A stretch of DNA of 64,000 nucleotides from a virus, in IMG/VR virus record IMGVR_UViG_3300042897_000994, positions 64,001 through 128,000 of that record; one strand, written 5' to 3'. The notes under the pieces were generated by a model, which was given only the letters and a program-made list of their open reading frames with translations, made no database searches and had not been told where the DNA came from. The stretch's first letter is position 1, and each line of letters starts with the position of its first letter. Made by a program: the position numbers and the translations under genes. This document shows positions 2,441 to 42,060 of this stretch, in pieces.

Positions 2441-2802
2441 TGGAAAAAAAGATATACCTAAAGAATAAAGATTTGTATGAAGAAATCATCAAATCTAAAG
2501 AGCTTGATGAACTGACACCAAGGGCTCAAGCAATGTTAATGTTACTTGCACAAAGAGCATCCAGCAAACTTCCATATAGAAATCCAGATGACAGACAAGA
2601 TTGTATTTCTTCTGCATATTTAGATCTCTGGAGATATTGGAGAAGTTTTAACCCGGAAAAAAGTAAAAATGCATTCGCATATTACACAGAAATTTGTAAA
2701 AAGGGATTTGCTAAGGGATGGAATCAAATTCATCCTAAAAAATACGCAGGAACAATAAGCATTGATGGTGGCCGAGACTCAGACGGAATTTATACCATCT
2801 AA
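2440..2802 (+). CDS. gp55: Late-transcription sigma factor, T4 gp55-like
   Basis: 'YLKNKDLYEEI...DCISSA...FNPEKSKNAFAYYTEI' is the gp55-family region-2 signature. Confidence 0.85.
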   Translation: MEKKIYLKNKDLYEEIIKSKELDELTPRAQAMLMLLAQRASSKLPYRNPDDRQDCISSAYLDLWRYWRSFNPEKSKNAFAYYTEICKKGFAKGWNQIHPKKYAGTISIDGGRDSDGIYTI

Positions 2803-3281
2803 TGAGCGACATTAAGAAGATAAAGCCTACTCATAAATCTGGATTTAAACAGAGTTATTTCGAGCCCAAAAACTTATCAAAGTATTTGGGCTCATTTCCT
2901 ATAATATGCAGATCGAGCTGGGAAAGAAAGTTTGCAATTTTTTGTGATACAAATGACGCAGTGATTAAATGGAGTTCAGAACCTATTGAAATCAAATACT
3001 ACAATATTCTTGACAAAAAATTCCACAAATACTATCCCGATTATTTCGTTCAAATTCAAAAAGAAGGAAATCTTATTAATTATGTGGTAGAAGTTAAACC
3101 TTCTTCTCAACTCAAGAAACCTGAACCTCCGAAGAGAATTACAGAAAAGGTTGTAAATTCTTATAAAAGAGCATATGAAACTTATGTTATGAATCTTTGT
3201 AAATTAGATGCTCTCAGAAAATATGCAGAGCAAAGAAATTGGAAAGTTCTCGTTATAACCGAAAAAAGTAATCTAATCTAA
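2802..3281 (+). CDS. gp4: Head completion nuclease, T4 gp4-like (TnsA-type)
   Basis: 'PKNLSKYLG...RSSWERKF...WSSEP...YYPDY...VEVKP...EK'. Confidence 0.9.
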   Translation: MSDIKKIKPTHKSGFKQSYFEPKNLSKYLGSFPIICRSSWERKFAIFCDTNDAVIKWSSEPIEIKYYNILDKKFHKYYPDYFVQIQKEGNLINYVVEVKPSSQLKKPEPPKRITEKVVNSYKRAYETYVMNLCKLDALRKYAEQRNWKVLVITEKSNLI

Positions 3282-3282
3282 A

Positions 3283-3951
3283 ATGCCAAGTACTCCCTTA
3301 GATTTTATAATTAAAGGTGTTGGTATTCTTGATCCGATGGAGATCAAGAAGAATAGAGACATGTATATCAAAGAGAGTAAGAGTCTACCAATTGCTTCTA
3401 AAGGAGCAATAGAATGGTATGAAGAATCTGAAACTTTTAAGAATTTTCAAATAAAAAGAATAAGGACAGGTGAAGAATTAAAGCTCGGAAAGCTTTATTT
3501 CTTTGACTATGATCCTCTCGATAGAAATCAAATATATGATATTAAACCATTGATAATCAGTTTAGGTAGAATAGGGGCTAAAGACGGTTCGGTAGAAACT
3601 GGAATTAATCTAAATTATTTTCCAGAGAACGTAAAGTCAGCTATACTAGATTTTTATTTTAGAATCTTTGCAAATAGATTAAGAAGAGAAGTAAGAAGTT
3701 CCAGTGCATATAATGTACAAAAGCAGAACGGGATTGGAATTACTTGGGAAGAATTAGCACCGCTGGAAAAAAGACTTCGTATCAGTTATGGAGTTAAAAA
3801 TTACAAAATAGGTAGAATGACTGATATCAGCGAGTTTACATATGAAAGCTGGTATCAAATGACTACATATCAACCGAATGTAGATTTTAGGAATGCGACA
3901 CTTGCTGAAGTGTATCGTAATTATTTTGAATATATAAAAAATAAAGCATAA
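3283..3951 (+). CDS. gp2: DNA end protector, T4 gp2-like
   Basis: 'GKLYFFDYDP...YDIKPLII...GINLNY' pattern; lies between gp4 and portal. Confidence 0.7.
   Translation: MPSTPLDFIIKGVGILDPMEIKKNRDMYIKESKSLPIASKGAIEWYEESETFKNFQIKRIRTGEELKLGKLYFFDYDPLDRNQIYDIKPLIISLGRIGAKDGSVETGINLNYFPENVKSAILDFYFRIFANRLRREVRSSSAYNVQKQNGIGITWEELAPLEKRLRISYGVKNYKIGRMTDISEFTYESWYQMTTYQPNVDFRNATLAEVYRNYFEYIKNKA
3929..3936 (+). promoter_or_regulatory. Late promoter motif AATATATA before portal
   Basis: Matches the RATAWATA-A consensus. Confidence 0.6.
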
Positions 3952-10697: not shown

Positions 10698-11194
10698 TGA
10701 ATCGATCCAAAGAGCCTAGAATCGTATTTAGAAACTGGGGAAAAACTCCGAGAAAACATCAGGTAGTATTAAAACATCTAACCGAAGATCAAAAGAAGTT
10801 TCTACAAAACAATGAGTTCATAAAATTTCTACCAAAAGAGCATCAACTATTTTCTATTCTTTTCAAGATTAATTATATGGAAAGAATGTTAAAAAGCGAA
10901 AAGATTTTTAAGCCAAATCCGTATACTGGGGAATTTAGCAATGAAAGACAGCTTTTTAAAGATAGCAATCTAGTAGATTGGTATTGCGCAATATGTAAAG
11001 TAGATATTGTTTCTAAGATGAATGACTTCGAACCTCAGAATTTTTTATGTGAGAAATGCAAAGAGAGTCATGGAGATAGAAATACAATAGACTCTCGAAT
11101 AAAAGAAAATTCTATTCTCTTTACTCAAAACTGTAAGAAAGAATTGAAAATAGAGCAGAAGGAATTTCTTAAGTATGTTAAAAGAAATGTTTAG
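10697..11194 (+). CDS. Hypothetical protein with CxxC...CxxC zinc finger
   Basis: CAIC...CEKC; TAATG coupling to the upstream gene. Confidence 0.6.
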   Translation: MNRSKEPRIVFRNWGKTPRKHQVVLKHLTEDQKKFLQNNEFIKFLPKEHQLFSILFKINYMERMLKSEKIFKPNPYTGEFSNERQLFKDSNLVDWYCAICKVDIVSKMNDFEPQNFLCEKCKESHGDRNTIDSRIKENSILFTQNCKKELKIEQKEFLKYVKRNV

Positions 11195-12027
11195 AGAGCT
11201 AAAGCTTCAGTATAACTAATCTTTTCTATCTCTTTTATTTCGCTAAATTTAGAAGTGTTATAGATTTTAACTCTCCTGCCTTCTAGTGAATTAACTAGTG
11301 AGGAGTAATGGGGTAACCAATTCCTTTGCATCACTTCATCGCTGGCCCCCTTTTTACCGTAACCATCATGCCAGTGCGTATTACCACCAGAACCGTTTTT
11401 ACCATCAAATCCCATTAAAACAATTTTTTTAGCACCTAGATGATATGCAACATTGATTGCGGCATATCCTGAATTTCCACCAGTTCTAATTCCATTGGGT
11501 TCTAATTCTAACCCTTCTCTTCCAGTTTCTACTAAATTGATAATGTCATCAGTTTTTGGAGATGGATTTTTTGTTGCTTTAATTCCTTTGAATAGATGAA
11601 TTTCTTTTTTGAATGTATCATAAAAACTCGAATCACTCCAATAAAGAACCTGAGCAAAGGGCAGATATAAAAATGCTTTGTTTACTGCAATAACTATTTT
11701 GTCTTTTAGAATCTCAAAATCAAAATCTTTTAATGAAGGACCTCCACCGACTATATAAATAGTTTCACCTAGAAATATAGGTTCGAGATCAGAAATTTTT
11801 TCGTATCTGCTATACTTAAATCTGAGACCTTCTTCACTATAGTTTCCTCTAGTCGGCTGATGAACATAAACATTATTAACTCTCTTAGTAGCTACGACAC
11901 CAGATTTTTTGGATTCTATTTGAAGCTCTTTTTTCTCTTCAATCGTGATTTGAACTTGATCCTTCTTTCTGATTATATGTTCTCTTCTTGATGGTAGAAC
12001 ACTAATCTTTTTCTTTCTTACCGCCAT
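11191..12027 (-). CDS. DUF115 / MptE-like (Maf-type glycosyltransferase-related) protein
   Basis: 'IYIVGGGPSL', 'IAVNKA', 'GGNSGYAAINVAYHLGAKKIVLMGFD'. Start placed at ATG 12027, just after a minus-strand late promoter at 12034-12041. Confidence 0.75.
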   Translation of the reverse strand: MAVRKKKISVLPSRREHIIRKKDQVQITIEEKKELQIESKKSGVVATKRVNNVYVHQPTRGNYSEEGLRFKYSRYEKISDLEPIFLGETIYIVGGGPSLKDFDFEILKDKIVIAVNKAFLYLPFAQVLYWSDSSFYDTFKKEIHLFKGIKATKNPSPKTDDIINLVETGREGLELEPNGIRTGGNSGYAAINVAYHLGAKKIVLMGFDGKNGSGGNTHWHDGYGKKGASDEVMQRNWLPHYSSLVNSLEGRRVKIYNTSKFSEIKEIEKISYTEALAL

Positions 12028-12048
12028 ATTAATTATATATTTGTAATG

Positions 12049-12075
12049 AAACAATTGTTCATAATCTTCATATAA
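12049..12075 (+). promoter_or_regulatory. Putative middle promoter AAAC-N18-TATAA
   Basis: AAACAATTGT...CATATAA; recurs with 17-nt spacing at four other gene starts. Confidence 0.6.
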
Positions 12076-12094: not shown

Positions 12095-13060
12095 ATGACA
12101 GTGAAAGTAGAAAACTTTTTATTTACAGAAAAGTATCGTCCAAGCACTCTTAAAGATCTTATTGCACCGGCCAGAGTTTTAGAAAAATTAAAAAACGGTG
12201 TTTATCAACACCTTCTTCTATACGGAAGCCCAGGAACTGGAAAGACGAGTAGTGCTAAAGTTTTAGTTAGGGAATTCGGGCATCCTTATTTGTACATCAA
12301 TGCAAGTACTGATACTAGTGTTGATATTGTTAGAAATAGAATTACAGACTTCTGCGCAAACAGAAGTATTATGGATGAACCCGGTAAATTAAAGGTTGTA
12401 ATTCTAGATGAGATAGATGGAGTATCTGATCAGTTTTTCAAAGCTCTAAGAGCTACAATGGATCAGTTTAGTGCAAATGCTCGATTTATCGCAACCTGTA
12501 ACTTTATTAATAAAGTTCCAGATCCTATTCAGTCTAGATTTGAAATGATTAATTTTGATTTTTCAAAAGATGAAGAGAATGAATTAGTAAAACAATACAT
12601 ACTGAGAATAAACCACATCTGTAAAGAAGAAGGCATTACGATAGATAAGCACGCAATTTTAGAATTAGTCAAGAGAAAATTTCCAGATCTTAGAAGTGTT
12701 TTAAATACTATCCAGGGATATTATAGTCAGGGATTAAAAAACATCACTTTAGAAGATATTAAAAAGTTCAATTCTATCTATAAAGATGTTTTTGAACTTG
12801 TATTTCAAAATGTAGATCCTATTAAGAACTATCAGTATTTAGCTTCTGAATATTCAAATCGAGTAGATGATGTTTTAAATTCCCTAGGAAATGATTTTAT
12901 TGACTATATTAAAACTGAACAACCTACTTATGAAAAGGCAGTTCCACAAATAATCATTACAGTGGCCAAATATCAATCGATGAGAAGCCAAGTCATAGAT
13001 CCAGTTATCACAATGTTGGCTTGTGTTTATGAATTACAAACAATAATTAAAGGGGCATAG
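12095..13060 (+). CDS. gp44: Sliding clamp loader AAA+ subunit, T4 gp44 / RFC-like
   Basis: 'EKYRP', Walker A GSPGTGKT, 'INAS', 'ILDEID', 'IQSRF', 'PDLR'. Confidence 0.95.
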   Translation: MTVKVENFLFTEKYRPSTLKDLIAPARVLEKLKNGVYQHLLLYGSPGTGKTSSAKVLVREFGHPYLYINASTDTSVDIVRNRITDFCANRSIMDEPGKLKVVILDEIDGVSDQFFKALRATMDQFSANARFIATCNFINKVPDPIQSRFEMINFDFSKDEENELVKQYILRINHICKEEGITIDKHAILELVKRKFPDLRSVLNTIQGYYSQGLKNITLEDIKKFNSIYKDVFELVFQNVDPIKNYQYLASEYSNRVDDVLNSLGNDFIDYIKTEQPTYEKAVPQIIITVAKYQSMRSQVIDPVITMLACVYELQTIIKGA

Positions 13061-13106: not shown

Positions 13107-14315
13107 ATGAACAAAAAACACACGTTGGTAATAGATGGAAACTACTTTCTGTTTAGAACCTTATACGTTTTACCGAGAAACAAAGGAAAGATTTTAGAGA
13201 CTAAAGCCGATGTAGGAATTTTCGTAAGAAAACTTGCAACAGATTTCGCATCTGAGATTAGAAAATTTAGAACTATGGTAGATCAAGTGGTCTTTACTAT
13301 AGATTCAAAATCATGGAGAAAAGATTTTTATCCACAAAGCGAATACAAAGGTAATCGAAGTTCTGATGAATCTATCAATTGGGAAAATTTTGTAAAAGGT
13401 GGCGAAGACTTTAAAGAATTTTTAAAATCAAAGGGGGTTATTTTACATAAAGTAAATGGAGCTGAAGGTGATGATCTAATTTTTGCATGGTCAGTAAATG
13501 CTAACTACCGAGAAAAGCCGGTAATTGTTTTTTCTGGTGATAGAGATTTACTTCAGCTTGTAAATTACAATCAATCTACCAGATCTTACACTATCTTCTA
13601 TTCAAACACGCACAAAAAACTCTGTGTATTCAAGGGTTTTTCTGATTGGTTAGAAAGAGAAGAACATCAAGTCACTGATATTTTTGATATGCAAAAATCA
13701 GTTGAAGGAGATAACATCATTCGCAATGGTTTGAAATCTTTGATTAAAGATTCTAAGTTAAATTTAGAAGAAATTCATCCTGGAGAATTCGCATTTAAAA
13801 AGGTTTTAACTGGAGATGCTGGAGATAATGTAAAGCCAGTTTACTACTATCAAGTAACTAAAGATGACAAAACTAGAAATTACGGACTTTCTGACAAGAA
13901 AGCCGAAATGATTTTTAGAGAGTTTGAAAAAAAGTACGGTACCTTTAAGATAGAATACCTGTATGATGAAGAATATCAAAGACAAATCTGCAATTTAATT
14001 GTAAAACACTTAAATGCAGACAAAATGCCTTTCGATAGAATTCTTCAAAATATCAAAGACAACACACATTTAGTTATTTTGCATCAGAGATCAATTCCAG
14101 AAGAAATTACAAATCAAATGTTTGAATTAGTTGATCAAATGCAAGATTTAAAAATTCCAAATTTTGAAGCAATATCTTCTAAAGACGAATTGCTAAAAGG
14201 TTCTTCTTATCTAACTGAAAATTACAGACCGGCCAGTTCTAACTTCTTTGAAGAAGGAGGCGAAGAAGATAGGTCCTTCATCTTGAAGAGTAAACCTTCT
14301 GACTCTTTATTCTAA
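13107..14315 (+). CDS. rnh: 5'-3' exonuclease / T4 RNase H-like flap nuclease
   Basis: 'LVIDGN', 'SWRK..YP..YKGNR', 'EGDDLI', 'SGDRDLLQL', 'GDAGDNV'. Confidence 0.9.
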   Translation: MNKKHTLVIDGNYFLFRTLYVLPRNKGKILETKADVGIFVRKLATDFASEIRKFRTMVDQVVFTIDSKSWRKDFYPQSEYKGNRSSDESINWENFVKGGEDFKEFLKSKGVILHKVNGAEGDDLIFAWSVNANYREKPVIVFSGDRDLLQLVNYNQSTRSYTIFYSNTHKKLCVFKGFSDWLEREEHQVTDIFDMQKSVEGDNIIRNGLKSLIKDSKLNLEEIHPGEFAFKKVLTGDAGDNVKPVYYYQVTKDDKTRNYGLSDKKAEMIFREFEKKYGTFKIEYLYDEEYQRQICNLIVKHLNADKMPFDRILQNIKDNTHLVILHQRSIPEEITNQMFELVDQMQDLKIPNFEAISSKDELLKGSSYLTENYRPASSNFFEEGGEEDRSFILKSKPSDSLF

Positions 14316-14328
14316 AATATATAAACAG

Positions 14329-14748
14329 ATGGAACTTTTCGATTTTATAAAGGTAATTTTTGAGCAGAACAATAAGTACGAAAGTTTAAAGAGCTACGAT
14401 AAAGTTAAGCACAACTTTATGCTGAATAGATTTATGTCTATTCAATATCCTATTCAAGCTCAAATGTTTAACAGATTGGGAATTTCTTCTCTTGGAGTTT
14501 CTGATTCTTGGAGAAAAGTAGGTCGACAATATAAAAGAACTCCAGGTTGGGTTTTTACTAAGTTGAAGAAGAATCAGAAGAATCAAAAAAATTACTCGCC
14601 TTCACCGGAAGCGCTAAATTTATTTCTTCAAATTAATCAGATAGGAGAAAGAGAATATAAAGAAGCTCTACAGTTTAATCAAGAAGGTGTTGTTGAATCT
14701 TTAAAGTCGATTGAAAAACAATTAACTTCTAATGGAGCTAAAGAATGA
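14329..14748 (+). CDS. Possible clamp loader A subunit (gp62-like)
   Basis: 'LFDFIK..F...FMLNRFMS' resembles short gp62 homologues; close to gp44. Confidence 0.45.
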   Translation: MELFDFIKVIFEQNNKYESLKSYDKVKHNFMLNRFMSIQYPIQAQMFNRLGISSLGVSDSWRKVGRQYKRTPGWVFTKLKKNQKNQKNYSPSPEALNLFLQINQIGEREYKEALQFNQEGVVESLKSIEKQLTSNGAKE

Positions 14749-15436
14749 AATTAATCATTGGGAAGTACCTGTTTGGATAGAAATAATTCTGTACAAGTCA
14801 TGTGCATATGATCTGAAGCTAGTTAATGATATTAGAACCAGAGCAGTAAAGACCAAAAACGAATCAAATGGTGAATCTCTCTTCATCTTACCTAAAGATC
14901 TTAAAGAACTAATATCTAAAAGACCTTATTCTACAAGATTAAAGAAACAGTCTAAGATGACTGAATCTGAGATAGCACAAGATGTAGATTCTGTTTATTT
15001 TATCAATAATATTCTGAATGCTCTTCAGAATTTGAGAATAGTTAAGATCTTTCTTTCTAATTCAATTTTTACAGGAAGAGTTTATAGTACTTTAGATGAT
15101 CAAGAAGTCATTATGCTAGAACATTCAGTAGAATATGGGGTTTTAGATCTTCCTAAATTCTTTACAGAAAAAGAACTCGAATCTTTTAATAAAGCGATGA
15201 TGAATTTAGGGTTTTTGAGCAACAAATATCTTCAAAGAGACCCCTATTTTAAAATTGGAACTAGTGAATTTTTACAGAAACTTGAAGATTATATAACTGA
15301 ACTTTTCTTAAAAGACGAAATAGAAGATCAAGATTCTAAAATGATTTTTCTTGATAAATTATACGCCTTAATTGATCCAAAGCTTGAAGAAGACGACACT
15401 TTGTTACTAGTCTTGACCGACTATAAGAATTTGTGA
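14732..15436 (+). CDS. Hypothetical protein
   Basis: 234-aa ORF in the operon; no recognisable motif. Confidence 0.6.
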   Translation: MELKNEINHWEVPVWIEIILYKSCAYDLKLVNDIRTRAVKTKNESNGESLFILPKDLKELISKRPYSTRLKKQSKMTESEIAQDVDSVYFINNILNALQNLRIVKIFLSNSIFTGRVYSTLDDQEVIMLEHSVEYGVLDLPKFFTEKELESFNKAMMNLGFLSNKYLQRDPYFKIGTSEFLQKLEDYITELFLKDEIEDQDSKMIFLDKLYALIDPKLEEDDTLLLVLTDYKNL

Positions 15437-30057: not shown

Positions 30058-31998
30058 ATGGCTAAGGCGGTAGAACAGAAATATAGAAAACTTACAGACA
30101 TAGAGCACGTCCTCTTAAGGCCAGGTATGTATATCGGCTCGGTAAAACAACACGAGGGTGAAATTTATCTTTTAAATGAAAGTAGAAACTTTGAAACACA
30201 AAAAGTCAGTTACAATCCAGCTTTTTTAAAGATTTTTGATGAAATTATCTCTAACTCAGTAGATGAACATAAAAGAAATCCAAAGCTAAATCAGATTGAA
30301 GTTAAAGTAGACAGAGAAGGCGGTACTATCTCAATTACAGATAACGGAGGAATTCCGGTTCAAAAGCATAAGGAATATGATGAGTGGATTCCAGAATTGA
30401 TTTTTTCAAATCTGAAAACAGGATCAAACTTTGACGATTCAGAAGATAGGACAGTTGCTGGTACTAATGGAGTAGGGGCAACTCTTACAAATATCTTTTC
30501 TAATCATTTCAGAGTTTCAACTTGTGATGGTAGTAAAGAATATGTGCAAGATTTCTACGATAACATGCATCGCAGAAACGAACCTAAAGTTTCTAATAAG
30601 AAAAGAGGCTACACTGAAATATTTTATTCTCCTGATTTTTCCAGATTTTCTGGAATGGATGGAATTGATGAAATTTCATACCAATTAATGAGAAAACGAG
30701 CTTGCGATATTGCAGCATGTAACAACAAGCTCAAAATAACTTTCGACGGAGAAGTATTTCAATTTAAGTCTTTTAAAGAATATTCAGAAATGTATGTTTC
30801 TGAAATCTTCTATGAAGAATCAGAGAACTGGAAAATCGGAGTAGGTCATTCCGGGCAGGGATTTCAATCAGTATCATTCGTAAATTCAGTAGAAACAAAA
30901 GACGGAGGTACTCATGTTGAATATATCTTCTGGCAAATCTGTAATTCTTTAAGAGAAAAAATCAAAAAGAAGTATAAAGTTGAAGTAAAGCCTTCGGAGA
31001 TTAAGAATCACATGTTCTTGTTCATCGATTCTACCGTAATTAATAGTTCATTTTCATCTCAGACAAAGGAAAAGCTGATTACTGAATATAAAGAATTCGG
31101 AACTGAACATGCTGTTACAGAAGCCCTTGTCAAAAAGGTATTTACTTCTGAGGTTGTTAAGTCTCTTTTAGATTGGATAGAACAAAAACAGCTAGCAGAA
31201 GAAAGAAAACAACTCAGAGCTCTAAACAAAAATCTCGATAAAGCAAAAATCATCAAATTGATTGATGCTAAATCTAAAGACAGAGAAAAATGCACTCTTT
31301 CGATATTTGAAGGCGACTCTGCAAGTTCTGCATTTAGACAATATAGAAATCCGCAGTATCAAGGTGCATTTCCGCTACGAGGTAAGTTCATTAATGTAAT
31401 GGAAGTACCTAACACAAAGGTGATTCAAAACCAAGAAGTAAAGAATCTACTTGCTTCTATTGGTTTGAAAATGGGGGAATCTCCAAAGGATTTAAGATAT
31501 GGAAAGATTTTAATCTACACCGATCAAGATCATGATGGAATGAGTATTGCAGGTCTTTTAATGAATTTCTTTGCCAAATATTGGCCTGAACTTTTTGAAG
31601 AAGAAAGAATATGCAAAGTAGAAACTCCTCTACTAGTTGCTAAAAACAAAAAAGAGACCTTTAGTTTTTATACACAAGAAGAATTTGATACTTGGAGTAA
31701 AAAGACAAATACCAACTCCTGGGATATTGAATATAAAAAGGGTTTAGCTTCTTTGGAAAATGATGAATATGAAGAGATCATCAGAAACCCGAGATATTTC
31801 GTGGTAGAAAAAGGAAAGAATTTTAAAGGTGTATTTTCTACTTGGTTTGGTGGTGATTCTCAACCTAGAAAATATAAAATATTAGGAACTTCTCCCGAAC
31901 CTATCGAGGAATTAGAACCAGAGCCAACTCCTTCTAAGCCAAAGGCAGAGAAGAAAGAACCTGAAAAGAAAGAAAAGAAAAGCATTAGTTTATTTTGA
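30058..31998 (+). CDS. gp39: Type IIA topoisomerase ATPase/TOPRIM subunit (gp39+gp60 fused)
   Basis: 'EHVLLRPGMYIGS', 'EIISNSVD', 'GTNGVG', 'EGDSA', 'PLRGK', 'DQDHDG', 'YKKGLAS'. Confidence 0.97.
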   Translation: MAKAVEQKYRKLTDIEHVLLRPGMYIGSVKQHEGEIYLLNESRNFETQKVSYNPAFLKIFDEIISNSVDEHKRNPKLNQIEVKVDREGGTISITDNGGIPVQKHKEYDEWIPELIFSNLKTGSNFDDSEDRTVAGTNGVGATLTNIFSNHFRVSTCDGSKEYVQDFYDNMHRRNEPKVSNKKRGYTEIFYSPDFSRFSGMDGIDEISYQLMRKRACDIAACNNKLKITFDGEVFQFKSFKEYSEMYVSEIFYEESENWKIGVGHSGQGFQSVSFVNSVETKDGGTHVEYIFWQICNSLREKIKKKYKVEVKPSEIKNHMFLFIDSTVINSSFSSQTKEKLITEYKEFGTEHAVTEALVKKVFTSEVVKSLLDWIEQKQLAEERKQLRALNKNLDKAKIIKLIDAKSKDREKCTLSIFEGDSASSAFRQYRNPQYQGAFPLRGKFINVMEVPNTKVIQNQEVKNLLASIGLKMGESPKDLRYGKILIYTDQDHDGMSIAGLLMNFFAKYWPELFEEERICKVETPLLVAKNKKETFSFYTQEEFDTWSKKTNTNSWDIEYKKGLASLENDEYEEIIRNPRYFVVEKGKNFKGVFSTWFGGDSQPRKYKILGTSPEPIEELEPEPTPSKPKAEKKEPEKKEKKSISLF

Positions 31999-33362
31999 TG
32001 AAAAGAACAGTAGAAGATTTTTTCGATAGAGAATATTTAGATTACGCTAAATACGTAGTTGAAAGTCGAGCTATTCCCTCCGTGATAGATGGTCTAAAGC
32101 CATCGCAGAGAAAGATTATTTATGCAGCTAACCGGATTTGGAAAACAGGAAATGAAAAGCCTATGAAGCTTTTTCAATTGGCTGGTAATGTAGCTGCAAC
32201 TACAATGTATCACCACGGGAATGCATCATTGGAATCTGCTCTGGTAAACTTGGCACAAACCTTTAAAAATAGTATGCCACTCTTACACGGGATCGGTCAA
32301 TTTGGTTCTTTAAGAAGTCCAGAAGCTGGAGCTCCTAGATATATTGGTGCTAAACTACATCCTAATTTCAGACTTTTATATAAAGATTTTGAACTTTTAG
32401 AAAAAAGATATGAAGATGGAGAAGAAATAGAACCCCGTTTTTTTCTGCCGATCGTTCCTACTGTTCTTCTAAACGGAAGTTCGGGAATTGCAGTTGGATT
32501 TTCTACTAATATTTTTAATCGAAATCCTCTTGATATTATTCAAGCATGTCTTAGCGTTCTAGAAGGAAAGAAGTTAAAAGACTTACCTCCCTGGCGTTCT
32601 AATTTTAGAGGAACTTATGAAAAAGCCGAAGAAGGAGAAAGCACCTGGTATATCAAAGGTTCTTTTGAAGTTAAAAATACTACCACTGTAGAAATTACAG
32701 AACTTATTCCTAGCTTTACCTATGAGAAATACGAGAATCATCTTAATAATCTCTTAGAAAAACATATCATATCTAGTTATGAAGATAATTGTTCTAACGA
32801 TATAAATTACACTCTAAAGTTTAGCAGAGCAACTCTTCAAGAACTTATTGACAAGGGAAAACTTGCAGAAGTTCTTAAAATGCAAGAAAGAGATACCGAA
32901 AATCTTACAGTGATAGACGAACAAGGAAAGCTAAAAATCTTCAATAATGCAAAAGAGATAGTTTCTTATTTTGTTAATCTTAGATTGGGTTACTATCAGA
33001 AAAGAAAAGACTATTTTATAGAACAAATAGAAAGAGAACTTATGATTCTTTCTAATAGAGCTCGCTTCATTAAGGGTATTTTAGAAGAAAAGATCAAAGT
33101 TAATAAAGTAAAGAGAGAAGATCTTATAGCTACTTTAGAAAAAATGAAATTTGATAAAGTAGATGGAAGTTTTCAATATTTGATTGGAATGCCAATCTAC
33201 TCTCTAACTTTAGAAAAGTACGAAGAGCTTCTAAAACAAGTTACAGACAAAGAATCTGAACTTGAATTAATGAAAAAGTCTGATATTACTGAAATGTATA
33301 AAAAGGACTTGAAAGAACTTGAAAAGAAAATCAAAGAAACTTCTAATAACAATAACAAATGA
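31995..33362 (+). CDS. gp52: Type IIA topoisomerase breakage/reunion subunit (gp52-like)
   Basis: 'RAIPSVIDGLKPSQRK', 'YHHG', 'GAPRY' (catalytic Tyr), 'NGSSGIAVG'. Confidence 0.97.
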   Translation: MMKRTVEDFFDREYLDYAKYVVESRAIPSVIDGLKPSQRKIIYAANRIWKTGNEKPMKLFQLAGNVAATTMYHHGNASLESALVNLAQTFKNSMPLLHGIGQFGSLRSPEAGAPRYIGAKLHPNFRLLYKDFELLEKRYEDGEEIEPRFFLPIVPTVLLNGSSGIAVGFSTNIFNRNPLDIIQACLSVLEGKKLKDLPPWRSNFRGTYEKAEEGESTWYIKGSFEVKNTTTVEITELIPSFTYEKYENHLNNLLEKHIISSYEDNCSNDINYTLKFSRATLQELIDKGKLAEVLKMQERDTENLTVIDEQGKLKIFNNAKEIVSYFVNLRLGYYQKRKDYFIEQIERELMILSNRARFIKGILEEKIKVNKVKREDLIATLEKMKFDKVDGSFQYLIGMPIYSLTLEKYEELLKQVTDKESELELMKKSDITEMYKKDLKELEKKIKETSNNNNK

Positions 33363-34432
33363 GCAAACTTGCTTTAACCTACGATGACATTCAGTTAGTA
33401 CCTGCACTATCTACAGTTGCATCTAGACAAAAAATAAAATTGCGTACTCTAGTGTCTAGAAGATACGGTATTTTGAATCCTTTCGTAGCTTCTCCGATGG
33501 ACACGGTTTGTGAAGAAGAAATGGCATTCAAGATGTTCTTAATGGGAGGTGTAGGATGCATTCATCGATTCATGTCGGTTGAAGATCAGATAAAAATAGT
33601 TCGTAGTTTGAACGGTAGAATCTATGGCGACGGTTTTGGAGGACCTTATGAGGATTGGGGAATTATGTTGGATGATTGGCACTCAGAAATTCCACACATC
33701 CCAATTATGGCTGCAATTGGAGTGATGGCTTCTGACGTAGAAAGAGCTAAGAAATTAGTAGAAGCAGGAGCAAATATTATTTTAATAGATGTTGCACACG
33801 GTCATCATCAAAATGTGATTGACATGATAAAAATATTAAAAGAAGCTCTACCTCAGCATGTAGACATTATTGCAGGTAATATTGCAACTGCTCAAGCTGC
33901 AATTGATTTAGAAGAAGCAGGAGCAGACGGTCTCAGAGTAGGTATAGGGGGAGGATCTCTCTGTACTACTCGAGTTAAGACCGGATTTGGTATTCCAAAC
34001 GTAACTTCAATTATGGAAATTGAAGCAGTTGCTAAAACTCCAATTATGGCAGATGGGGGAATCAGAAGCAGCGGAGATATTGCCAAAGCATTAGCAGTCG
34101 GTGCATCTTCGGTAATGTTAGGTTCGTTATTGTCTGGTACTGATGAAGCACCCGGGCAAATTATCGAAAAGCCTAATGGTTTATACAAGAGATATAGAGG
34201 AGCAGCTTCATTAGAAACAAAAACGGTTCACGGTCAAGCTCAACGAAACGTAGAAGGAGAATCTACGGTTGTTCCGTATAAGGGTGGTGTTAAATTTATT
34301 TTGAACGGACTTATTGATGGAGTTAAATCTGCACTTTCTTATGCAGGTTCAGAATCTTTAAAAACTTATAATCCAGAATTTGTACAAGTTACAAACGCTG
34401 GAGCAGCAGAAGCAAAACCACATTTACTATGA
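33359..34432 (+). CDS. IMPDH/GMP reductase family enzyme without CBS domains; probably GMP reductase
   Basis: 'SPMDTV', 'IDVAHG', 'GIGGGSLCTTR', 'ADGGI'; flap lacks the IMPDH Arg-Tyr dyad. Confidence 0.85.
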   Translation: MSKLALTYDDIQLVPALSTVASRQKIKLRTLVSRRYGILNPFVASPMDTVCEEEMAFKMFLMGGVGCIHRFMSVEDQIKIVRSLNGRIYGDGFGGPYEDWGIMLDDWHSEIPHIPIMAAIGVMASDVERAKKLVEAGANIILIDVAHGHHQNVIDMIKILKEALPQHVDIIAGNIATAQAAIDLEEAGADGLRVGIGGGSLCTTRVKTGFGIPNVTSIMEIEAVAKTPIMADGGIRSSGDIAKALAVGASSVMLGSLLSGTDEAPGQIIEKPNGLYKRYRGAASLETKTVHGQAQRNVEGESTVVPYKGGVKFILNGLIDGVKSALSYAGSESLKTYNPEFVQVTNAGAAEAKPHLL

Positions 34433-34692
34433 TAGAAGTAGAATCAAGCACAATTAAAAAGATAGGATATAGTTATCCAGATAGAAAGCTTATTGTAGAG
34501 TTTAAGTCTGGTGGAATTTATCACTATAAAGATGTACCCGAAGAAGTTTTTGAAGAGTTAAAAACTTCTGAATCTATGGGAAAGTTTTTAAATGAAAATA
34601 TAAAGAAAAAATATGAATTCGAAGCTGTATATTTACCTGGACGACGTGAGGACTCCGAAGGATCCGAACTGGAAAGTAGTCCGAAATTATGA
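34429..34692 (+). CDS. KTSC domain protein
   Basis: 'VESSTIKKIGY...LIVEFKSG.IY.Y.DVP......L....S.GKFLN..IK'. Confidence 0.9.
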   Translation: MIEVESSTIKKIGYSYPDRKLIVEFKSGGIYHYKDVPEEVFEELKTSESMGKFLNENIKKKYEFEAVYLPGRREDSEGSELESSPKL

Positions 34693-35071
34693 GGAATTTG
34701 TAGATCTAGTTTCTAAAACTGGACTAGAAAATATTGAAACAATATCCTTAGATCATGATCTAGGTCCTATAGCAATGTCAGAATATTTTAACAATGTTTC
34801 ACCTAATTACAAACTTGACTATAATAATCTTATAGAAGAAAAGACAGGATATGATTGTGCAAAATGGTTAGTTGATTATTATTATGAAAAATATGATAAA
34901 GAAGTTTCTAGAAATGAAAAAAGAAACTCCGGAATATTATTCCCTCGGATTTACACTCATTCTGCTAATCCGATTGGTTCTGCTAATATCATGGGATATG
35001 TAAATAATTTTTTAATGAATGAAGCTCAACCACAAGATTGTGTTAGAGTACAAATAGAACATACAGTATGA
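34613..35071 (+). CDS. Cyclic-phosphate-processing receiver-like domain protein
   Basis: 'YLDDVRTP', 'ISLDHDLG', 'TGYDCAKWL', 'HSANPIG'. Confidence 0.8.
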   Translation: MNSKLYIYLDDVRTPKDPNWKVVRNYEEFVDLVSKTGLENIETISLDHDLGPIAMSEYFNNVSPNYKLDYNNLIEEKTGYDCAKWLVDYYYEKYDKEVSRNEKRNSGILFPRIYTHSANPIGSANIMGYVNNFLMNEAQPQDCVRVQIEHTV

Positions 35072-36160: not shown

Positions 36161-36730
36161 ATGCAAAAATATATTATCTTTGAAGGTCTAGATCGTTGTG
36201 GTAAAGACACTCAAGTTGGATTAGTACAAAAGTCTTTTTCGGATGAGACTTTTCATGTCTTCCATTATAGCAAAATCCCACTAGAAACTCCAGAACAAAA
36301 CAGAGAATATAGTGAAAGAATGTATAGAGATATGTTCAATGTGATGATAGAGAATAAAGGTGAAAATAGAAATTTTATCTTCAATCGATCTCATCTCGGA
36401 GAATCTGTATATGCTCCTCTATATAGAAATTATTTAGGTGATTATGTTTTTAAGATTGAAGAAGAATATATCGAAGATCTAAAATCTAATCTTTATCTTG
36501 TAGTTTTGGTAAATGAACCTTCTATCTTAATCAGTAGAGAAGATGGAGATTCTTTAAGCAAAGGCGAAGAAGATATTGCTAAAGAAAAACAAATGTTTGA
36601 AAGAGCTTATTTTGAAAGCAAAATTCAAAATAAAATCTTGATCGACTGTGGAGTAGATAGCCCAACAGAAATTGCACAAATTATTAAAGACTTTATTTTA
36701 GATTCAGAAAATGAAAATATACCAGGGTAA
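36161..36730 (+). CDS. Thymidylate-kinase-like dNMP kinase (candidate modified-dCMP kinase)
   Basis: 'FEGLDRCGKDTQ', 'FNRSHLGE.VY..LYR'; overlaps the TS homologue. Confidence 0.85.
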   Translation: MQKYIIFEGLDRCGKDTQVGLVQKSFSDETFHVFHYSKIPLETPEQNREYSERMYRDMFNVMIENKGENRNFIFNRSHLGESVYAPLYRNYLGDYVFKIEEEYIEDLKSNLYLVVLVNEPSILISREDGDSLSKGEEDIAKEKQMFERAYFESKIQNKILIDCGVDSPTEIAQIIKDFILDSENENIPG

Positions 36731-37583
36731 TTCTTTCGCATCTGTATACAGAGATCTTCTGAACGATCTTTTAAATTCTCCTGAATATACATGTTCGCCT
36801 AGGGGAATGGAAATAAGAGAAATTACAGACTGTGCTCTAGTAATTGAAAATCCTGTCTTTGCAATGTATGAAAATGAGAGAAGATCTACTCAAGAAAAAT
36901 ATATTGCTGCAGAGTTTTTATGGTACTTTGCTGGTAGAAATGATTTAAGTTTTATCGAAAGATTCGCAAAGTTCTGGCAACATGTTGCAAATGAAGATGG
37001 AACTTTAAATTCTGCTTATGGAAATTTAATTTTCACAAAAAAGAATGAGCATAACATTTCACAGTGGGAATGGGCTTATAATTCATTAGTCGAAGATAAA
37101 GATACTCGTCAGGCAATTATGCATTTTAATATGCCTGAACACCAAAGACGTGGAAATAAAGATTTTGTTTGTACTCTAACTGGAATTTTTCAGATCAGAG
37201 AAAATAAATTGAATTTTACTGTGAACATGCGAAGTAATGATGCCATCTTAGGAACTCCTACAGATATTCCTTTCTTCTGTGTTTTGCAGATCCAAATGTT
37301 AGAACTTTTAAAGTCTACATATCCAGATTTAGAACTCGGTACATATACACATTTTGCGCATTCTCTTCATATTTATGAAAGACATTTTCAACTGGTTGAA
37401 GAAATGTTAAAAGATGACAATTTTATTGCAAAAGATTTACCAAAAATCGATCAGACCCTGATATATAGATCAGGGAAACCCAACGAAAAAGTATTGGAAA
37501 TGATTGATAAAATTGAAAAAGGCGAATCTGATGTAGAAGCAACAGGTGAAATTTTTAAATGGATTTATCAGAACATTTTCTGA
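36711..37583 (+). CDS. Thymidylate synthase homologue of dCMP hydroxymethylase type (T4 gp42-like)
   Basis: 'NSAYG', 'DFVCT', 'MRSNDAILGTPTD' with Asp where ThyA has Asn177, 'SLHIYERHF'. Confidence 0.85.
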   Translation: MKIYQGNSFASVYRDLLNDLLNSPEYTCSPRGMEIREITDCALVIENPVFAMYENERRSTQEKYIAAEFLWYFAGRNDLSFIERFAKFWQHVANEDGTLNSAYGNLIFTKKNEHNISQWEWAYNSLVEDKDTRQAIMHFNMPEHQRRGNKDFVCTLTGIFQIRENKLNFTVNMRSNDAILGTPTDIPFFCVLQIQMLELLKSTYPDLELGTYTHFAHSLHIYERHFQLVEEMLKDDNFIAKDLPKIDQTLIYRSGKPNEKVLEMIDKIEKGESDVEATGEIFKWIYQNIF

Positions 37584-37610: not shown

Positions 37611-38765
37611 ATGAACGTTACGAAATTTGAAAAGCCAGACACTTCCGTGAAATCGGTATATGTGTACTATTTTGGCAAGTATCCGAAGAAAACAAAACCA
37701 GCTAAAGATGTAACTTTACCTATCAGGCTTTGGCCAGAAGCTAAATTTTATATTAGATGTAATACTAAAGGAGGAATCGGAAAGAATAATCTGGAATATT
37801 TCTCTAATCTTTACAACGGAACTCAATTTGAGTTAGTAGAAGAAACTCTCGATCAAGTAGTAGATGCAGAAATGCTCTTTATCCATCATGAAAATTATAA
37901 TGCATTTGGTGGAGTAGTTCGAGAATGCTGTATTCATTTTGCTCAAATTCTAGGGAAATGGACGAAAAAGGCAACAGTTTTCTACAATGATGAATTATTC
38001 TCTGGTTTCTATGATATTAGGGATTGGTTAGAATCAAGATCAACAAATGAAAACTTCTTGAAAAATAATCCTCAAATTTTAGAAAGAGTTCCAAGAAGCG
38101 AAAATTGGGAAAATGTTACTCTGCTCATGAATGAAAATAAAATCACAGACTGGGCTGATGTACATGTAAAAGACACTCTAACCGATAGAATTGAAGTTTC
38201 TTATCTATCAGATATTATTTTATATGATCTTCCTACCTCGGGAATGAAATATAAAAATAGTTATGAAAAGAAGGGAGTTTATGTTCCTCTGTTTACAGCA
38301 GAAAGAATTTCAGTTTGTAACAAACTTTTCAATGGAAATGTAGAGATTACTTTTGCTGGATCTCGTTCAGATGAATTAAAAGAAAATATTGCAGGCGATG
38401 GAAAATACATTCAGAATTTTGAATTACCTGCATTCTTGAAAAAATTCGATTGGACTATTTATATCGGAAAGGGAAAGCAGTCTTCATATCTAGGAGCTAC
38501 TTTTTACGAACCTCTATTAAAAGGTCTTCCTGTTTTTGTATGGACTGAAACCGACAAACAAAAGAAAGTTTTTGGTGATATCGATTGTTATTTCTCAACT
38601 GAAGATCAATTACAAAAGCTTGTTGAAAAGTGGGATATGAAAGAACTTTACAAAACTCAAGTAGTACATATCTTCGGAAATGAACCTGAAGAAACTGGAG
38701 AATTTGAAAGTGTACAAGCTACAGAAATTCCAAAAGAAAAGCCTAAAGTAATTGCACTATTCTAA
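37611..38765 (+). CDS. Putative DNA glycosyltransferase, T4 beta-glucosyltransferase-like (GT-B)
   Basis: Colinear resemblance to T4 BGT as recalled: NAFGG~NFFGG, FYND~LFTD, ITFAG~IEFFG, IYIG~LIIG, ETDKQKKV~EFDTKHRI; directly follows the dCMP-type TS. Confidence 0.7.
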   Translation: MNVTKFEKPDTSVKSVYVYYFGKYPKKTKPAKDVTLPIRLWPEAKFYIRCNTKGGIGKNNLEYFSNLYNGTQFELVEETLDQVVDAEMLFIHHENYNAFGGVVRECCIHFAQILGKWTKKATVFYNDELFSGFYDIRDWLESRSTNENFLKNNPQILERVPRSENWENVTLLMNENKITDWADVHVKDTLTDRIEVSYLSDIILYDLPTSGMKYKNSYEKKGVYVPLFTAERISVCNKLFNGNVEITFAGSRSDELKENIAGDGKYIQNFELPAFLKKFDWTIYIGKGKQSSYLGATFYEPLLKGLPVFVWTETDKQKKVFGDIDCYFSTEDQLQKLVEKWDMKELYKTQVVHIFGNEPEETGEFESVQATEIPKEKPKVIALF

Positions 38766-39877
38766 TGATTGGAATAATTAGAACTCGACCATCTTTTGCA
38801 AGAGTAGAATATGAACCCTATCATTTTTTAAAATGGCTTGAGCTTTTTCCTCAAAATAGATTTTTGTGGTTGAGTAAAAATCCAGATAAAGTTAAAAAAA
38901 GATTCGGAGAAGAAAATTTTCCAGCAATAGAATCTTTTGATCTTGATGAATATTTTACAATTGAAAGTATCTCTGAACGTGAAAAGTATTTGGATGATTT
39001 AATTAAGAGTAAAAATCTAACTCAGATAATTACTATTCATAATGATATAAAGCAAAACTTTAAAAATGGAGCTGAAGAAAAGGGAACTTCCTTTTTTAAC
39101 GGTATAGTAGAATCTGATAGTCTACCTACTTTTGTATCAGTGAAAAATTTCTTTGAAGTTAATCACATTCCTTATTATCTTTCAAAGAAAATTCCAGTCG
39201 TTCATGTTTATGTAGATCCCCAAGAAGCATCTTGGAATAGAATGACAGGATGCATTGAAGAAAAATATTTCTTCTATGAGAACTCAAGAATAGATGCAAA
39301 GTATCTACCTTTTGTAGAATGGAGTTTTTCAAAGCAGATTAAAAAATATTCAAAGAAAAAGAAATTTGCATTTGGATTTACAGTAGTTACTGAAGACCGG
39401 GAACCTCTTTATTATCAATTAGCAGATATTAAAAATGTCAATTTTCTGGTTAAATTTCCGAAGATAGGAATTGATACCACGGTAAAAAGAGCCGATTATG
39501 CAGAAATGCTTAAAGAGAGTGAATTTACTCTTGTGATTCCTTCGTATGAAGATACTGATTTTAGTAGTATTCGATTTTGGGATGCTATTACAAAAGCTTG
39601 CATTCCCTTTATTTTAGATACATGTAAATGGGAACAGGCTTTTGAGCAACATCCAGAAATAACAAAAATCATAAGTGAAGATCTTTTGGTGAATACTGAT
39701 ACCGTAAAAGAAAAGATTGAAAATACTGATTATGAATCCTTGCTAAATAAAATCTGGAATACTCAAGACTGGAAAAATATTCAAGATCTAGAATGGTATC
39801 AAGATCAGATTAAGGGAATTTCATTTGCAGATTCTGATAAACCTAAACCACCTTCCAAAAATATAGCTTTATTTTAA
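38765..39877 (+). CDS. Second putative DNA glycosyltransferase, GT-B with exostosin/GT47-like motif
   Basis: 'YAEMLKESEFTLVIPSY...SSIRFWDAITKACIPFIL'; TAATG-coupled to the BGT-like gene. Confidence 0.65.
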   Translation: MIGIIRTRPSFARVEYEPYHFLKWLELFPQNRFLWLSKNPDKVKKRFGEENFPAIESFDLDEYFTIESISEREKYLDDLIKSKNLTQIITIHNDIKQNFKNGAEEKGTSFFNGIVESDSLPTFVSVKNFFEVNHIPYYLSKKIPVVHVYVDPQEASWNRMTGCIEEKYFFYENSRIDAKYLPFVEWSFSKQIKKYSKKKKFAFGFTVVTEDREPLYYQLADIKNVNFLVKFPKIGIDTTVKRADYAEMLKESEFTLVIPSYEDTDFSSIRFWDAITKACIPFILDTCKWEQAFEQHPEITKIISEDLLVNTDTVKEKIENTDYESLLNKIWNTQDWKNIQDLEWYQDQIKGISFADSDKPKPPSKNIALF

Positions 39878-40296
39878 TGGAATTACTCAACACCCACCCA
39901 ATTAAAAAATCAGATTTAGGCTTTCATGGCAACCTTTTCGGAGGGAAATTGCTCGCCTGGATCGATGCAGCTGCTGCTGGGTATTCCATGCAATTATGTG
40001 ACACCCCTAGAATGGTTACTGTATCAATTGATAAATGTATTTTTGAAAAGCCAGCAAGAGAAAGTCAGCTTTTAAAAATTTACGGAGAGCCAAGTGAATT
40101 AGGCAACACTTCAGTCACGATGTACCTAGAGGCAAGAGCTCATAATGTTTACACTGGCAGACAGACTCTTGTCTTAAAAACTCATATCAAATTTGTACAT
40201 ATTGATGAAGAAGGAAATCCAATTCCAATTGCAGAAAAAGGCAGAACTCGGGTACAAAAAATGATCGATTCAAAAACAAATATAGAAGAAAAATGA
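39877..40296 (+). CDS. Hotdog-fold acyl-CoA thioesterase (YciA-like)
   Basis: 'DLGFHGNLFGGKLLAWIDAAA', 'VTVSID', 'FVHIDEEGNP'. Confidence 0.9.
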   Translation: MELLNTHPIKKSDLGFHGNLFGGKLLAWIDAAAAGYSMQLCDTPRMVTVSIDKCIFEKPARESQLLKIYGEPSELGNTSVTMYLEARAHNVYTGRQTLVLKTHIKFVHIDEEGNPIPIAEKGRTRVQKMIDSKTNIEEK

Positions 40297-41312
40297 AAAT
40301 ATTAGTAGTAGGCGCAGGATTAAGCGGAGCAGTAGTTTCAAGACATTTAGCAGAAACTGGATGTAAAGTTACAGTTATCGATAAAAGAGATCACATTGCA
40401 GGAAACGCATTTGATTATACGAATGAACATGGAATAAGAGTTCATAAATATGGACCACATCTCTTTCATACTCGAAATGAAAAGATCTTTAAATATCTAA
40501 GTAGATTTACAGAATGGGTTCCTTACTTTCATAAAGTAAAAGCTCAGTTGGAAGATGGTAGATATGTCACACTCCCAGTGAATAAAGAAACAAAAGAGAT
40601 TGTTGGTGAAGAAAACATTTTGGATATTTTCTTTAAACCTTACACAAAGAAAATGTGGGGAAAGGAAATTGAAGAACTTGATCCGGGTATTGTAAACCGA
40701 GTGAAACAATTTACTCGAGATGATATGAATGATCTTTATTTTCCGGACGATGAGTTTCAATGTATGCCAAAAGATGGTTATACTAAGATGGTAGAAAATA
40801 TGTTTGAACATGAAAATATTCAAATCAATCTTTCAACTGGATTTCATAAGAGTATGGAAGCTAATTTTGATTATGTTTTCAACAGTATGCCGATTGATGA
40901 ATATTATGATTTTTGCTATGGTGAACTTCCCTATCGATCAATCAAGTTTCATACTGTAGATCTTCCTGCACCAAAAATGTTACCTGCAGTTACTGTGAAT
41001 TTTACTCATACTGGTAAATTTACTCGAATGACAGAGTGGAAAAATATTCCGGCACATGGAGAAAATCCCTCAATGACGACTTTGACTTATGAAGAGCCTT
41101 GCGATTATGCAGATAATGATAATGAAAGATATTATCCAGTCAAAGATGTTGAAGGTAAAAACAGAGAGCTCTTTAGTAAATATCAAGCAATAGAAAATCC
41201 AAAGACAATTTTTATGGGAAGATTAGGTCTTTATGTTTATATTGATATGCATCAATGTATCAGCTCTACTCTTACTATTGTGGAAAAATTCATTAAAGAG
41301 AAAAATGTATAA
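40293..41312 (+). CDS. glf: UDP-galactopyranose mutase
   Basis: 'VGAGLSG', 'HIAGNAFD', 'VHKYGPHLFHT', 'YTKKMWG', 'LPYRS', 'TRMTEWK', 'YYPV', 'GRLG.Y.Y.DM'. Confidence 0.95.
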   Translation: MKILVVGAGLSGAVVSRHLAETGCKVTVIDKRDHIAGNAFDYTNEHGIRVHKYGPHLFHTRNEKIFKYLSRFTEWVPYFHKVKAQLEDGRYVTLPVNKETKEIVGEENILDIFFKPYTKKMWGKEIEELDPGIVNRVKQFTRDDMNDLYFPDDEFQCMPKDGYTKMVENMFEHENIQINLSTGFHKSMEANFDYVFNSMPIDEYYDFCYGELPYRSIKFHTVDLPAPKMLPAVTVNFTHTGKFTRMTEWKNIPAHGENPSMTTLTYEEPCDYADNDNERYYPVKDVEGKNRELFSKYQAIENPKTIFMGRLGLYVYIDMHQCISSTLTIVEKFIKEKNV

Positions 41313-42060
41313 AGATTTGTCAAGATTGCTATATGGCACTTCTGATCCATATTCCGAATGGAAAAAAATTAATTTTCCCATTGAAAGAGACTATCCAATG
41401 ACAAATATCTATTCTTCTTTAATACGAGAATCAATTGAAGAAACTAATACTAATTTTTGGTTAGAAATTGGCAGCATGTTTGGAGGTTCTGCGATTAAAA
41501 CGGCTAAAGTTGCAAATAGTCTTAAGAAAGACATATCAATTATATGTATAGACCCTTTTTGCGGAGATGTTTCTATGTGGGAACACAATATTTTTTTAAA
41601 AAATCAAAGAGAACAAGGATTCATTGCAAAAAATTCTATATATCTTGATCTAGATGGTTGCAGACCAACTTTAATGGATAAATTCCTCGGAAATGTAATT
41701 TCTGAAGGTTTCGAAAAAACTATCTTACCACTCCCTACTACGAGTATGGTAGGAATGCGATTACTTGAAAGATTTAGAGAAGATAAAAAAATTGATAGAG
41801 GTCCGGGTGTAATCTATCTTGATTCTGCTCACGAATGGTATGAAACTTATATAGAATTAGTTACTGCATGGAGAATACTAGCTCCGGGTGGAATTTTAAT
41901 AGGAGACGATTATGATTGGCCTGCAGTAAATCATGATGTCAATAAATTTGCAAGAGACTATAAAGTTAAAATTTTAGAGAAAGAAAAAGCACATTGGATG
42001 ATTAAAAAACCTCTAACTGTAGGATATTTAGCATCTCCTTTTTTTATGGGTGGGTATTAG
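41305..42060 (+). CDS. Class I SAM-dependent methyltransferase (Methyltransf_24-like)
   Basis: 'LEIGSMFGGS', 'IDPF', 'IYLDSAH', 'PGGILIGDDY'; start moved to ATG 41305, overlapping the end of glf. Confidence 0.85.
   Translation: MYKDLSRLLYGTSDPYSEWKKINFPIERDYPMTNIYSSLIRESIEETNTNFWLEIGSMFGGSAIKTAKVANSLKKDISIICIDPFCGDVSMWEHNIFLKNQREQGFIAKNSIYLDLDGCRPTLMDKFLGNVISEGFEKTILPLPTTSMVGMRLLERFREDKKIDRGPGVIYLDSAHEWYETYIELVTAWRILAPGGILIGDDYDWPAVNHDVNKFARDYKVKILEKEKAHWMIKKPLTVGYLASPFFMGGY

Follow-up and report, generated by a model that had tools for sequence, protein, structure and literature searches.

It has long been asked whether phage DNA glycosyltransferases act at the replisome or later, and the evidence from T4 for coupling through the sliding clamp (2004) has recently been contradicted. 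The question is raised anew by a 64,000-nucleotide stretch of viral DNA (hereafter the window: bases 64001-128000 of the IMG/VR phage record IMGVR_UViG_3300042897_000994, which spans 160,937 bp at a CheckV completeness of ~50%, with a guanine-plus-cytosine content of ~34%), in which two neighbouring genes encode a GT47-like putative DNA sugar-transferase of 370 amino acids (aa) and a 384-aa protein of no assigned family, both ending in ALF. A sequence-only reading of the window had claimed that these two proteins share a -(S/A)LF ending, placed after a Lys/Pro-rich linker, with an RNase H-like protein and with the large subunit of a type II topoisomerase; all four C-termini do read this way, with a stretch rich in K, P and E before each. 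The analysis presented here finds that the -LF tail is real, under selection and common to the DNA polymerase of the same phage, and it seems quite probable that the carriers of this polymerase-type C-terminal peptide would use it to dock on the PCNA-fold sliding clamp that the phage encodes.

When the C-termini of the whole record were listed, using a set of 173 non-overlapping open reading frames (ORFs) called over its 160,937 bp, -LF proved to be anything but randomly spread. Seven of the 173 ORFs end in it, vs 0.73 expected from the frequency of the LF dipeptide within proteins (Poisson P=1.2e-5, or ~0.005 once corrected for 400 dipeptides), making -LF the most over-represented C-terminal dipeptide in the record; endings in [SAT]LF number five vs 0.12 expected, this narrower pattern having been picked post hoc. 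Beyond the four carriers in the window, the tail is found on the C-terminal half of the DNA polymerase, on a 188-aa gp33-like protein and on a 70-aa ORF of the replication module (coordinates are collected in Table 1; those marked 'genome' refer to the whole record and lie outside the window, and all others refer to the window). Endings in -KF are also mildly over-represented (4 vs 0.7 expected), and a 502-aa helicase (phrog_16) ends ..KKFKF, with an orthologue in the huge phage LR756500.1 that ends ..QNIKF.

The nearest records, as judged by comparison of the polymerase C-half, are from uncultured huge phages: LR756500.1 (462 kb) is 64% identical, and LR756501-4 and Prevotella phage Lak-A2 show 35-38% identity. 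In LR756500.1, the nearest complete relative, 671 ORFs were called over the whole record, 10 of which end in -LF vs 2.8 expected. Each of the five record carriers with an orthologue there keeps its -LF (5/5) whilst the preceding residues differ: ..IYSSSLF in the polymerase, ..ISDNSLF in RNase H (46% identity), ..LETALF in the topoisomerase, ..KIKKLF in the 188-aa family and ..NKKGLF in the 70-aa family. Across orthologue pairs aligned to their ends, the last two residues are shared in 4/4 -LF pairs vs 8/68 others (Fisher P=5e-4). The tail appears in LR756500.1 on two further proteins: a 396-aa protein with the OB-fold and zinc-finger domains of an NAD-ligase (..QVSLF), and a 418-aa member of the T4 beta-glucosyltransferase family (PF09198, E=7e-23; ..IIEDLF), the gene for which adjoins a thymidylate-synthase-like gene. 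As a separate feature of this relative, its topoisomerase large subunit, polymerase C-half, clamp loader and NAD-ligase are split into pieces with inserted ORFs, one of them a DUF7487/TnsA-like endonuclease, which suggests heavy invasion by introns, inteins or homing endonucleases.

Homologues of the window proteins bear out the sequence-only reading in a second respect, as tails are kept on linkers that diverge. Database searches gave 17 homologues of the GT47-like protein: all 13 that are at least 46% identical to it end in x[SATP]LF, after linkers differing in both sequence and length, whereas the other four, which are more distant (37-46% identity) and 356-360 aa long, have no extension and stop at the end of the globular domain. 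The 384-aa protein carries its tail on an acidic and Pro-containing linker, and its orthologues end ..VTSLF on contig L010 and ..TSSLF on contig L014; an orthologue on contig L011 (53% identical) stops at the domain boundary. As this tail-less orthologue is adjoined by a tail-less GT47-like protein (P0014), there is one lineage in which both transferases are without the extension. For RNase H, the more distant huge phages have homologues (322-335 aa) that are likewise without it, with the exception of Lak-A2 (..ANALFE); for the topoisomerase, which has a K/E/P-rich linker, the orthologues on contigs L010 and L014 end ..KSKAIF and the tail is absent from more distant huge phages. Since the tails of the GT47-like protein, the 384-aa protein, RNase H and the topoisomerase are kept in near homologues and missing in distant ones, the tail can be regarded as a modular addition that several enzymes have acquired in this clade. 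Two other searches yielded less: the transferase genes gave zero matches in a DNA search against a phage collection, and neither the GT47-like protein nor RNase H found a close relative when each was scanned singly against IMG/VR.

This pattern bears directly on the simplest rival explanation, which is that the shared ending reflects chance or the compositional bias of an AT-rich genome. Phe and Lys are indeed common as C-terminal residues here (19 and 30 of the 173 ORFs, respectively), and -KK and -NK are over-represented too. Set against this are a P of ~1e-5 in the record, the repetition of the enrichment in LR756500.1, the retention of -LF in all orthologues despite diverging linkers and the gain or loss of the whole extension as a module, leaving an explanation by chance scarcely credible.

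What gives the tail a likely meaning is its presence on the polymerase. In T4, the C-terminal epitopes of gp43, gp33 and gp55 are alike, interchangeable and set on divergent linkers, and all bind the clamp gp45; the C-termini of the polymerase and of gp33 are the clamp-binding positions in both T4 and RB69 (PMC2988020). The family-B polymerase of the present phage comes as two pieces, an N-half of 468 aa and a C-half of 378 aa, whose genes lie ~4 kb apart; the space between them holds the clamp gene described below and the genes of both subunits of ribonucleotide reductase. The C-half (PF00136, phrog_1918), which ends ..IYTTTLF, was searched against 1.84 billion cluster representatives, and the best 150 representatives at 50% identity (32-71% identical to the query) were tallied: 82 end in -LF, 9 in -LW and 7 in -IF, most of the others being fragments or bearing acidic extensions. 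The terminal LF of this polymerase lineage is therefore old and strongly kept, and stands at the same position by which gp43 of T4 and RB69 holds the clamp. The second carrier of this kind, the 188-aa protein (..KKIRRLF), has its gene between those of a DnaB-like helicase and Mre11; -KLF closes every one of its 55 database homologues. In its AlphaFold2 model, an acidic and disordered N-terminal stretch precedes a helical domain modelled with confidence, and the tail is floppy and of low confidence. Its identity as gp33 was guessed before the model was searched structurally with VIA-align, which, on comparison of the helical domain with 48,161 chains, placed T4 gp33 (3tbi_A) first (Z 5.9, root-mean-square deviation 2.6 Å over 71/71 residues) as the only match with Z of at least 5; Foldseek returned no matches for the same model. 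The 70-aa ORF, which ends ..KDSKDNLF, is flanked by the primase and by a 146-aa ORF without a family assignment, and lies upstream of a helicase.

Some polymerases of the -LW type offer a further comparison. On contigs L041 and L042, the gene beside such a polymerase ends ..ETLW (a DUF5131 protein) or ..IDAW, respectively, the L042 polymerase itself ending ..DSLW; in Lak-A2 (MK250019.1, 346643-348070, TAG being translated as Gln), ..TAALW at the C-terminus of the polymerase is followed by ..DIDSW on the next gene, of 141 aa. This F-to-W co-variation between the polymerase and its neighbour is suggestive, and is weakened by two observations: the next Lak protein to end in W, an M13 peptidase, has its terminal W as part of the fold, and the gp33-like family was looked for in the more distant huge phages and not found. 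Lak-A2 has its own surplus of -LF endings (9 vs 2.3 expected), mainly on small ORFs of no known function.

One must consider that hydrophobic C-terminal residues can serve as protease tags, and that the tail might be some other C-terminal signal: a degron setting when early proteins are cleared, or a tag for localisation or packaging. Every carrier is non-structural, as such a signal would have it. A degron or tag would, however, give no reason for a tail kept on the polymerase across 32-67% identity, and would leave unexplained why the classic clamp clients (ligase, FEN and polymerase) are among those that carry it; this reading is very improbable.

A candidate receptor is encoded beside the polymerase, where the gene for a 250-aa protein abuts that of the C-half, just upstream of it. 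The family is well conserved, with 55-91% identity among the matches listed. Its AlphaFold2 model (predicted local distance difference test score, pLDDT, 88.5; predicted template-modelling score, pTM, 0.82) was compared with known structures by Foldseek, and the top matches are all PCNAs, from African swine fever virus, yeast, human and archaea (probability 1.0, E ~1e-10, TM 0.66-0.70), with some bacterial beta clamps (DnaN) ranking below them; the protein is thus predicted to adopt the two-domain beta-alpha fold of a clamp protomer. A PCNA fold modelled with this confidence indicates that the phage has a PCNA-like clamp of its own, and the presence of a gp44-like clamp-loader ATPase, encoded directly upstream of the RNase H gene, indicates that it also loads one. 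The clamp was missed by sequence-based routes: the Pfam gp45 models PF02916 and PF09116 found no clamp in the genome, and sequence and profile searches of the PDB with the clamp candidate and with proteins of 234, 188 and 139 aa gave no matches. The 234-aa protein had been the first clamp candidate and was dropped in favour of the 250-aa protein. A complex prediction that paired the 250-aa clamp with the C-terminal 40 residues of the GT47-like protein, run without controls, scored 0.00 and gave no answer, and weighs neither way. The phage clamp is, in our judgement, the most likely receptor for the tails, with a probability that is good rather than overwhelming.

Two other receptors have to be weighed against it. 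Firstly, any hub of the replisome would yield the same enrichment, given that all carriers belong to the replication or early class, and the tails might bind a gp32-like single-stranded DNA-binding protein (SSB), a helicase or a scaffold of the replication compartment; the function of T4 RNase H, for one, depends mainly on gp32. This is unlikely: in T4 and RB69 it is the clamp that the C-termini of the polymerase and gp33 bind (PMC2988020), and the SSB of the present phage has a conserved acidic tail of its own, ..DEFLKGLDI, suggesting a ligand rather than a receptor. The SSB tail, acidic-hydrophobic in character, reads ..DDLDEFLKGLDI and is kept in LR756500.1 as ..NDMNEFLADLDL, and it may constitute a second tail-based interaction system in the replisome. 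Secondly, the tails could dock on the host beta clamp, DnaN, either recruiting their carriers to host-type clamps or competing with host clients. QL[SD]LF, the bacterial beta-binding consensus, can form the very end of a protein, E. coli Pol II being an example, and NIALF, VIALF and SISLF fit its positions 2-5; because of this resemblance the host-clamp reading stays alive at low probability. It is quite unlikely in view of the missing consensus Gln, the loader and PCNA-fold clamp that the phage itself encodes beside its polymerase gene, and the presence of the tail on its own polymerase and gp33-like factor.

The surroundings of the two transferases bear on the nature of their acceptor (Table 1). 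The GT47-like protein matches PF03016 at E=1e-5 and 25.5 bits, under the curated cut-off of 33.4 bits, and its homologues carry a precomputed match to the same family. The 384-aa protein, its conserved neighbour, had been labelled 'BGT-like' in the sequence-only reading, a label that finds no support in the sequence: there is no Pfam match even at E<=1, and homology to the T4 beta-glucosyltransferase family was rejected on sequence grounds, hhalign against two PF09198 members giving a probability of 2%. Upstream of both lies a thymidylate-synthase-family enzyme, a candidate pyrimidine hydroxymethylase, and downstream a UDP-galactopyranose mutase (GLF), which could supply the sugar donor. The block also includes a guanylate-kinase-like enzyme, a weak thymidylate-kinase-like match and a methyltransferase. 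Among the genes placed around the transferases are those of a 4HBT thioesterase, a Methyltransf_24 enzyme, a member of the IMPDH/GMP-reductase family and a cREC_REC domain protein, any of which may have a part in the presumed modification pathway. GLF adjoins the transferases on contigs L010, L011, L013 and L014 too, and the thymidylate-synthase/transferase neighbourhood is repeated on L010 and L014. On contig L013, three consecutive transferases end ..KISLF, ..KTNTLF and ..STGALF, the third being a PF09198 member; they are adjoined by a UDP-glucose dehydrogenase gene (2392-3711) with a match to an intein-splicing domain, and by a NUMOD3/TnsA-like endonuclease gene. The layout of the block fits a pathway from hydroxymethyl-pyrimidine to sugar addition and, combined with the polymerase-type tail, points to DNA as the likely acceptor of the transferases. 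The replication genes are of T4 type throughout: besides the split polymerase and the SSB, they comprise a primase, two helicases, UvsX and an Mre11/Rad50 pair.

Table 1. Positions of the features discussed, in window coordinates unless marked 'genome'
Feature	Coordinates	Strand	Family or match	C-terminus (codons) or remark
gp55-like late sigma factor	2440-2802		Sigma70_r2 E=6e-4	..DGIYTI; ending kept in LR756500.1 as ..AEIYSI
alpha-2,3-sialyltransferase match	11191-12054	-	PHROG E=1e-34	adjoins clamp loader; sole minus-strand gene in that part of the window
gp44-like clamp-loader ATPase	12095-13060	+	phrog_168 'clamp loader of DNA polymerase' E=1.6e-73	
RNase H / 5'-3' exonuclease (FEN-like), 404 aa	13101-14315	+	Pfam 5_3_exonuc_N E=3e-18	..KSKPSDSLF (SLF 14304-14312)
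234-aa ORF	14732-15436			dropped clamp candidate
type II topoisomerase large subunit (GyrB-like, gp39-type)	30058-31998	+	Pfam DNA_gyraseB, Toprim, TOPRIM_C, HATPase_c	..KKEKKSISLF (SLF 31987-31995)
IMPDH/GMP-reductase family enzyme	33359-34432			
cREC_REC domain protein	34613-35071			
thymidylate-synthase-family enzyme	36711-37583	+	Pfam Thymidylat_synt E=1.2e-22	
384-aa protein	37611-38765	+		..EKPKVIALF (ALF 38754-38762)
GT47-like putative DNA sugar-transferase	38765-39877	+	Pfam Exostosin_GT47	..PSKNIALF (ALF 39866-39874)
4HBT thioesterase	39877-40296			
UDP-galactopyranose mutase (GLF)	40293-41312	+	Pfam GLF E=3.7e-51	
Methyltransf_24 protein	41233-42060			
gp32-like SSB	genome 40671-41591			
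502-aa helicase	genome 43327-44835			
polymerase N-half	genome 50763-52169			
250-aa clamp candidate	genome 55480-56232			
polymerase C-half	genome 56232-57368			
188-aa gp33-like protein	genome 60209-60775			

The proposed mechanism would run as follows: 1) a trimeric clamp of PCNA fold would be put on DNA by the gp44-like loader and serve as the receptor; 2) the clade would have appended one and the same epitope to RNase H/FEN, the large subunit of topoisomerase II, the two sugar-transferases and the 70-aa protein, and in its relatives also to NAD-ligase and an enzyme of the T4 beta-glucosyltransferase family; 3) the clamp would act as a tool-belt, giving newly replicated DNA access to Okazaki-fragment processing, decatenation, glycosylation and late transcription. 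On this basis the two sugar-transferases, topoisomerase II and RNase H of the window probably ride on the PCNA-like clamp, and sugar addition to DNA would be timed to the fork. The wider proposition, that a single interchangeable -(S/A)LF peptide makes the clamp a general tool-belt for the polymerase, FEN, ligase, the gp33-like factor, topoisomerase II and a set of DNA sugar-transferases, appears to us evenly balanced; if it is true, DNA hypermodification and decatenation are physically coupled to the replication fork.

Several points weigh against docking on the phage clamp. The binding of tail to clamp is a step that we infer. Other -LF endings in LR756500.1 fall on DUF6939 and DUF4326 proteins and on a membrane-like ORF, which have no known link to DNA. 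The gp33 assignment depends on a Z of 5.9 for a small helical domain, a score that the tool itself rates as middling, and the gp55-like late sigma factor does not end in -LF. The peptide also departs from each of the known types. The T4 epitope is hydrophobic-acidic, whereas the tail has the form x(S/A)LF-COOH behind a linker that is basic or rich in Pro, with a single aromatic residue, and zero acidic residues occupy the last 4-5 positions of the transferase and topoisomerase tails, so that the acidic composition of T4 is lacking. The PCNA-interacting peptide (PIP) box is Qxx[ILM]xx[FY][FY], whereas NIALF, VIALF, SISLF and SDSLF are without Gln and have one aromatic; nor does any tail have the Gln of bacterial QL[SD]LF, and the likely receptor is the PCNA-like clamp of the phage rather than DnaN. 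Finally, T4 offers a weak precedent for a clamp-bound glycosyltransferase, as its evidence is contradictory: an interaction between alpha-glucosyltransferase and gp45 was reported in 2004 (Sommer et al., pmid 15381072, as cited in PMC6024577), and a later study with C-terminally tagged enzymes did not reproduce it, in vitro or in vivo (bioRxiv 10.64898/2025.12.06.692756; PMC13216743).

Despite these points, the locus makes the coupling of glycosylation to replication legible in sequence, in that the transferases carry the terminal peptide of the polymerase and that tailed and tail-less lineages are available for comparison; the shared peptide and the two kinds of lineage together render the question directly testable. 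The tail also suggests a sequence rule by which DNA-directed enzymes may be found among unannotated phage genes, namely a C-terminus like that of the polymerase. The candidate client list of a viral clamp gains topoisomerase II and NAD-ligase. To our knowledge, a type II topoisomerase tethered to a clamp has never been described, and no papers on polymerase-type tails of phage glycosyltransferases or type II topoisomerases were found in a literature search that was thin on subscription journals.

Amongst known clamp-binding systems, the bacterial one is matched in part, with positions 2-5 of QL[SD]LF fitting three of the four window tails. The PCNA tool-belt of archaea and eukaryotes, with its clients FEN1, DNA ligase I, polymerases and DNMT1, is similar in both the fold of its clamp and the nature of its clientele, which here includes DNA-modifying enzymes alongside a polymerase, a ligase and a FEN-like nuclease; many PIP motifs of archaea, moreover, lie at the very C-terminus with an aromatic last residue. 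The closest parallel is with T4 and RB69, where the chain likewise closes with a short, hydrophobic epitope behind a linker of varying sequence and length. Here the epitope is shared by the DNA polymerase and a putative gp33-like factor, in a phage with its own trimeric-type clamp and gp44-like loader. Of the T4 trio, gp43 and, on a middling structural match, gp33 have counterparts among the -LF carriers, and the gp55-like sigma is not among them. A glycosyltransferase coupled to replication through the sliding clamp also recalls the report on T4 alpha-glucosyltransferase, although no shared tail is known to have been described in T4, whereas here a polymerase-type tail is borne by two or three transferases per genome. 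The system differs further from T4 in a clamp that the Pfam gp45 models miss and in a far wider clientele, extending to topoisomerase II, RNase H, sugar-transferases and NAD-ligase. The mechanism may be the same as that of T4, served by a peptide of another type.

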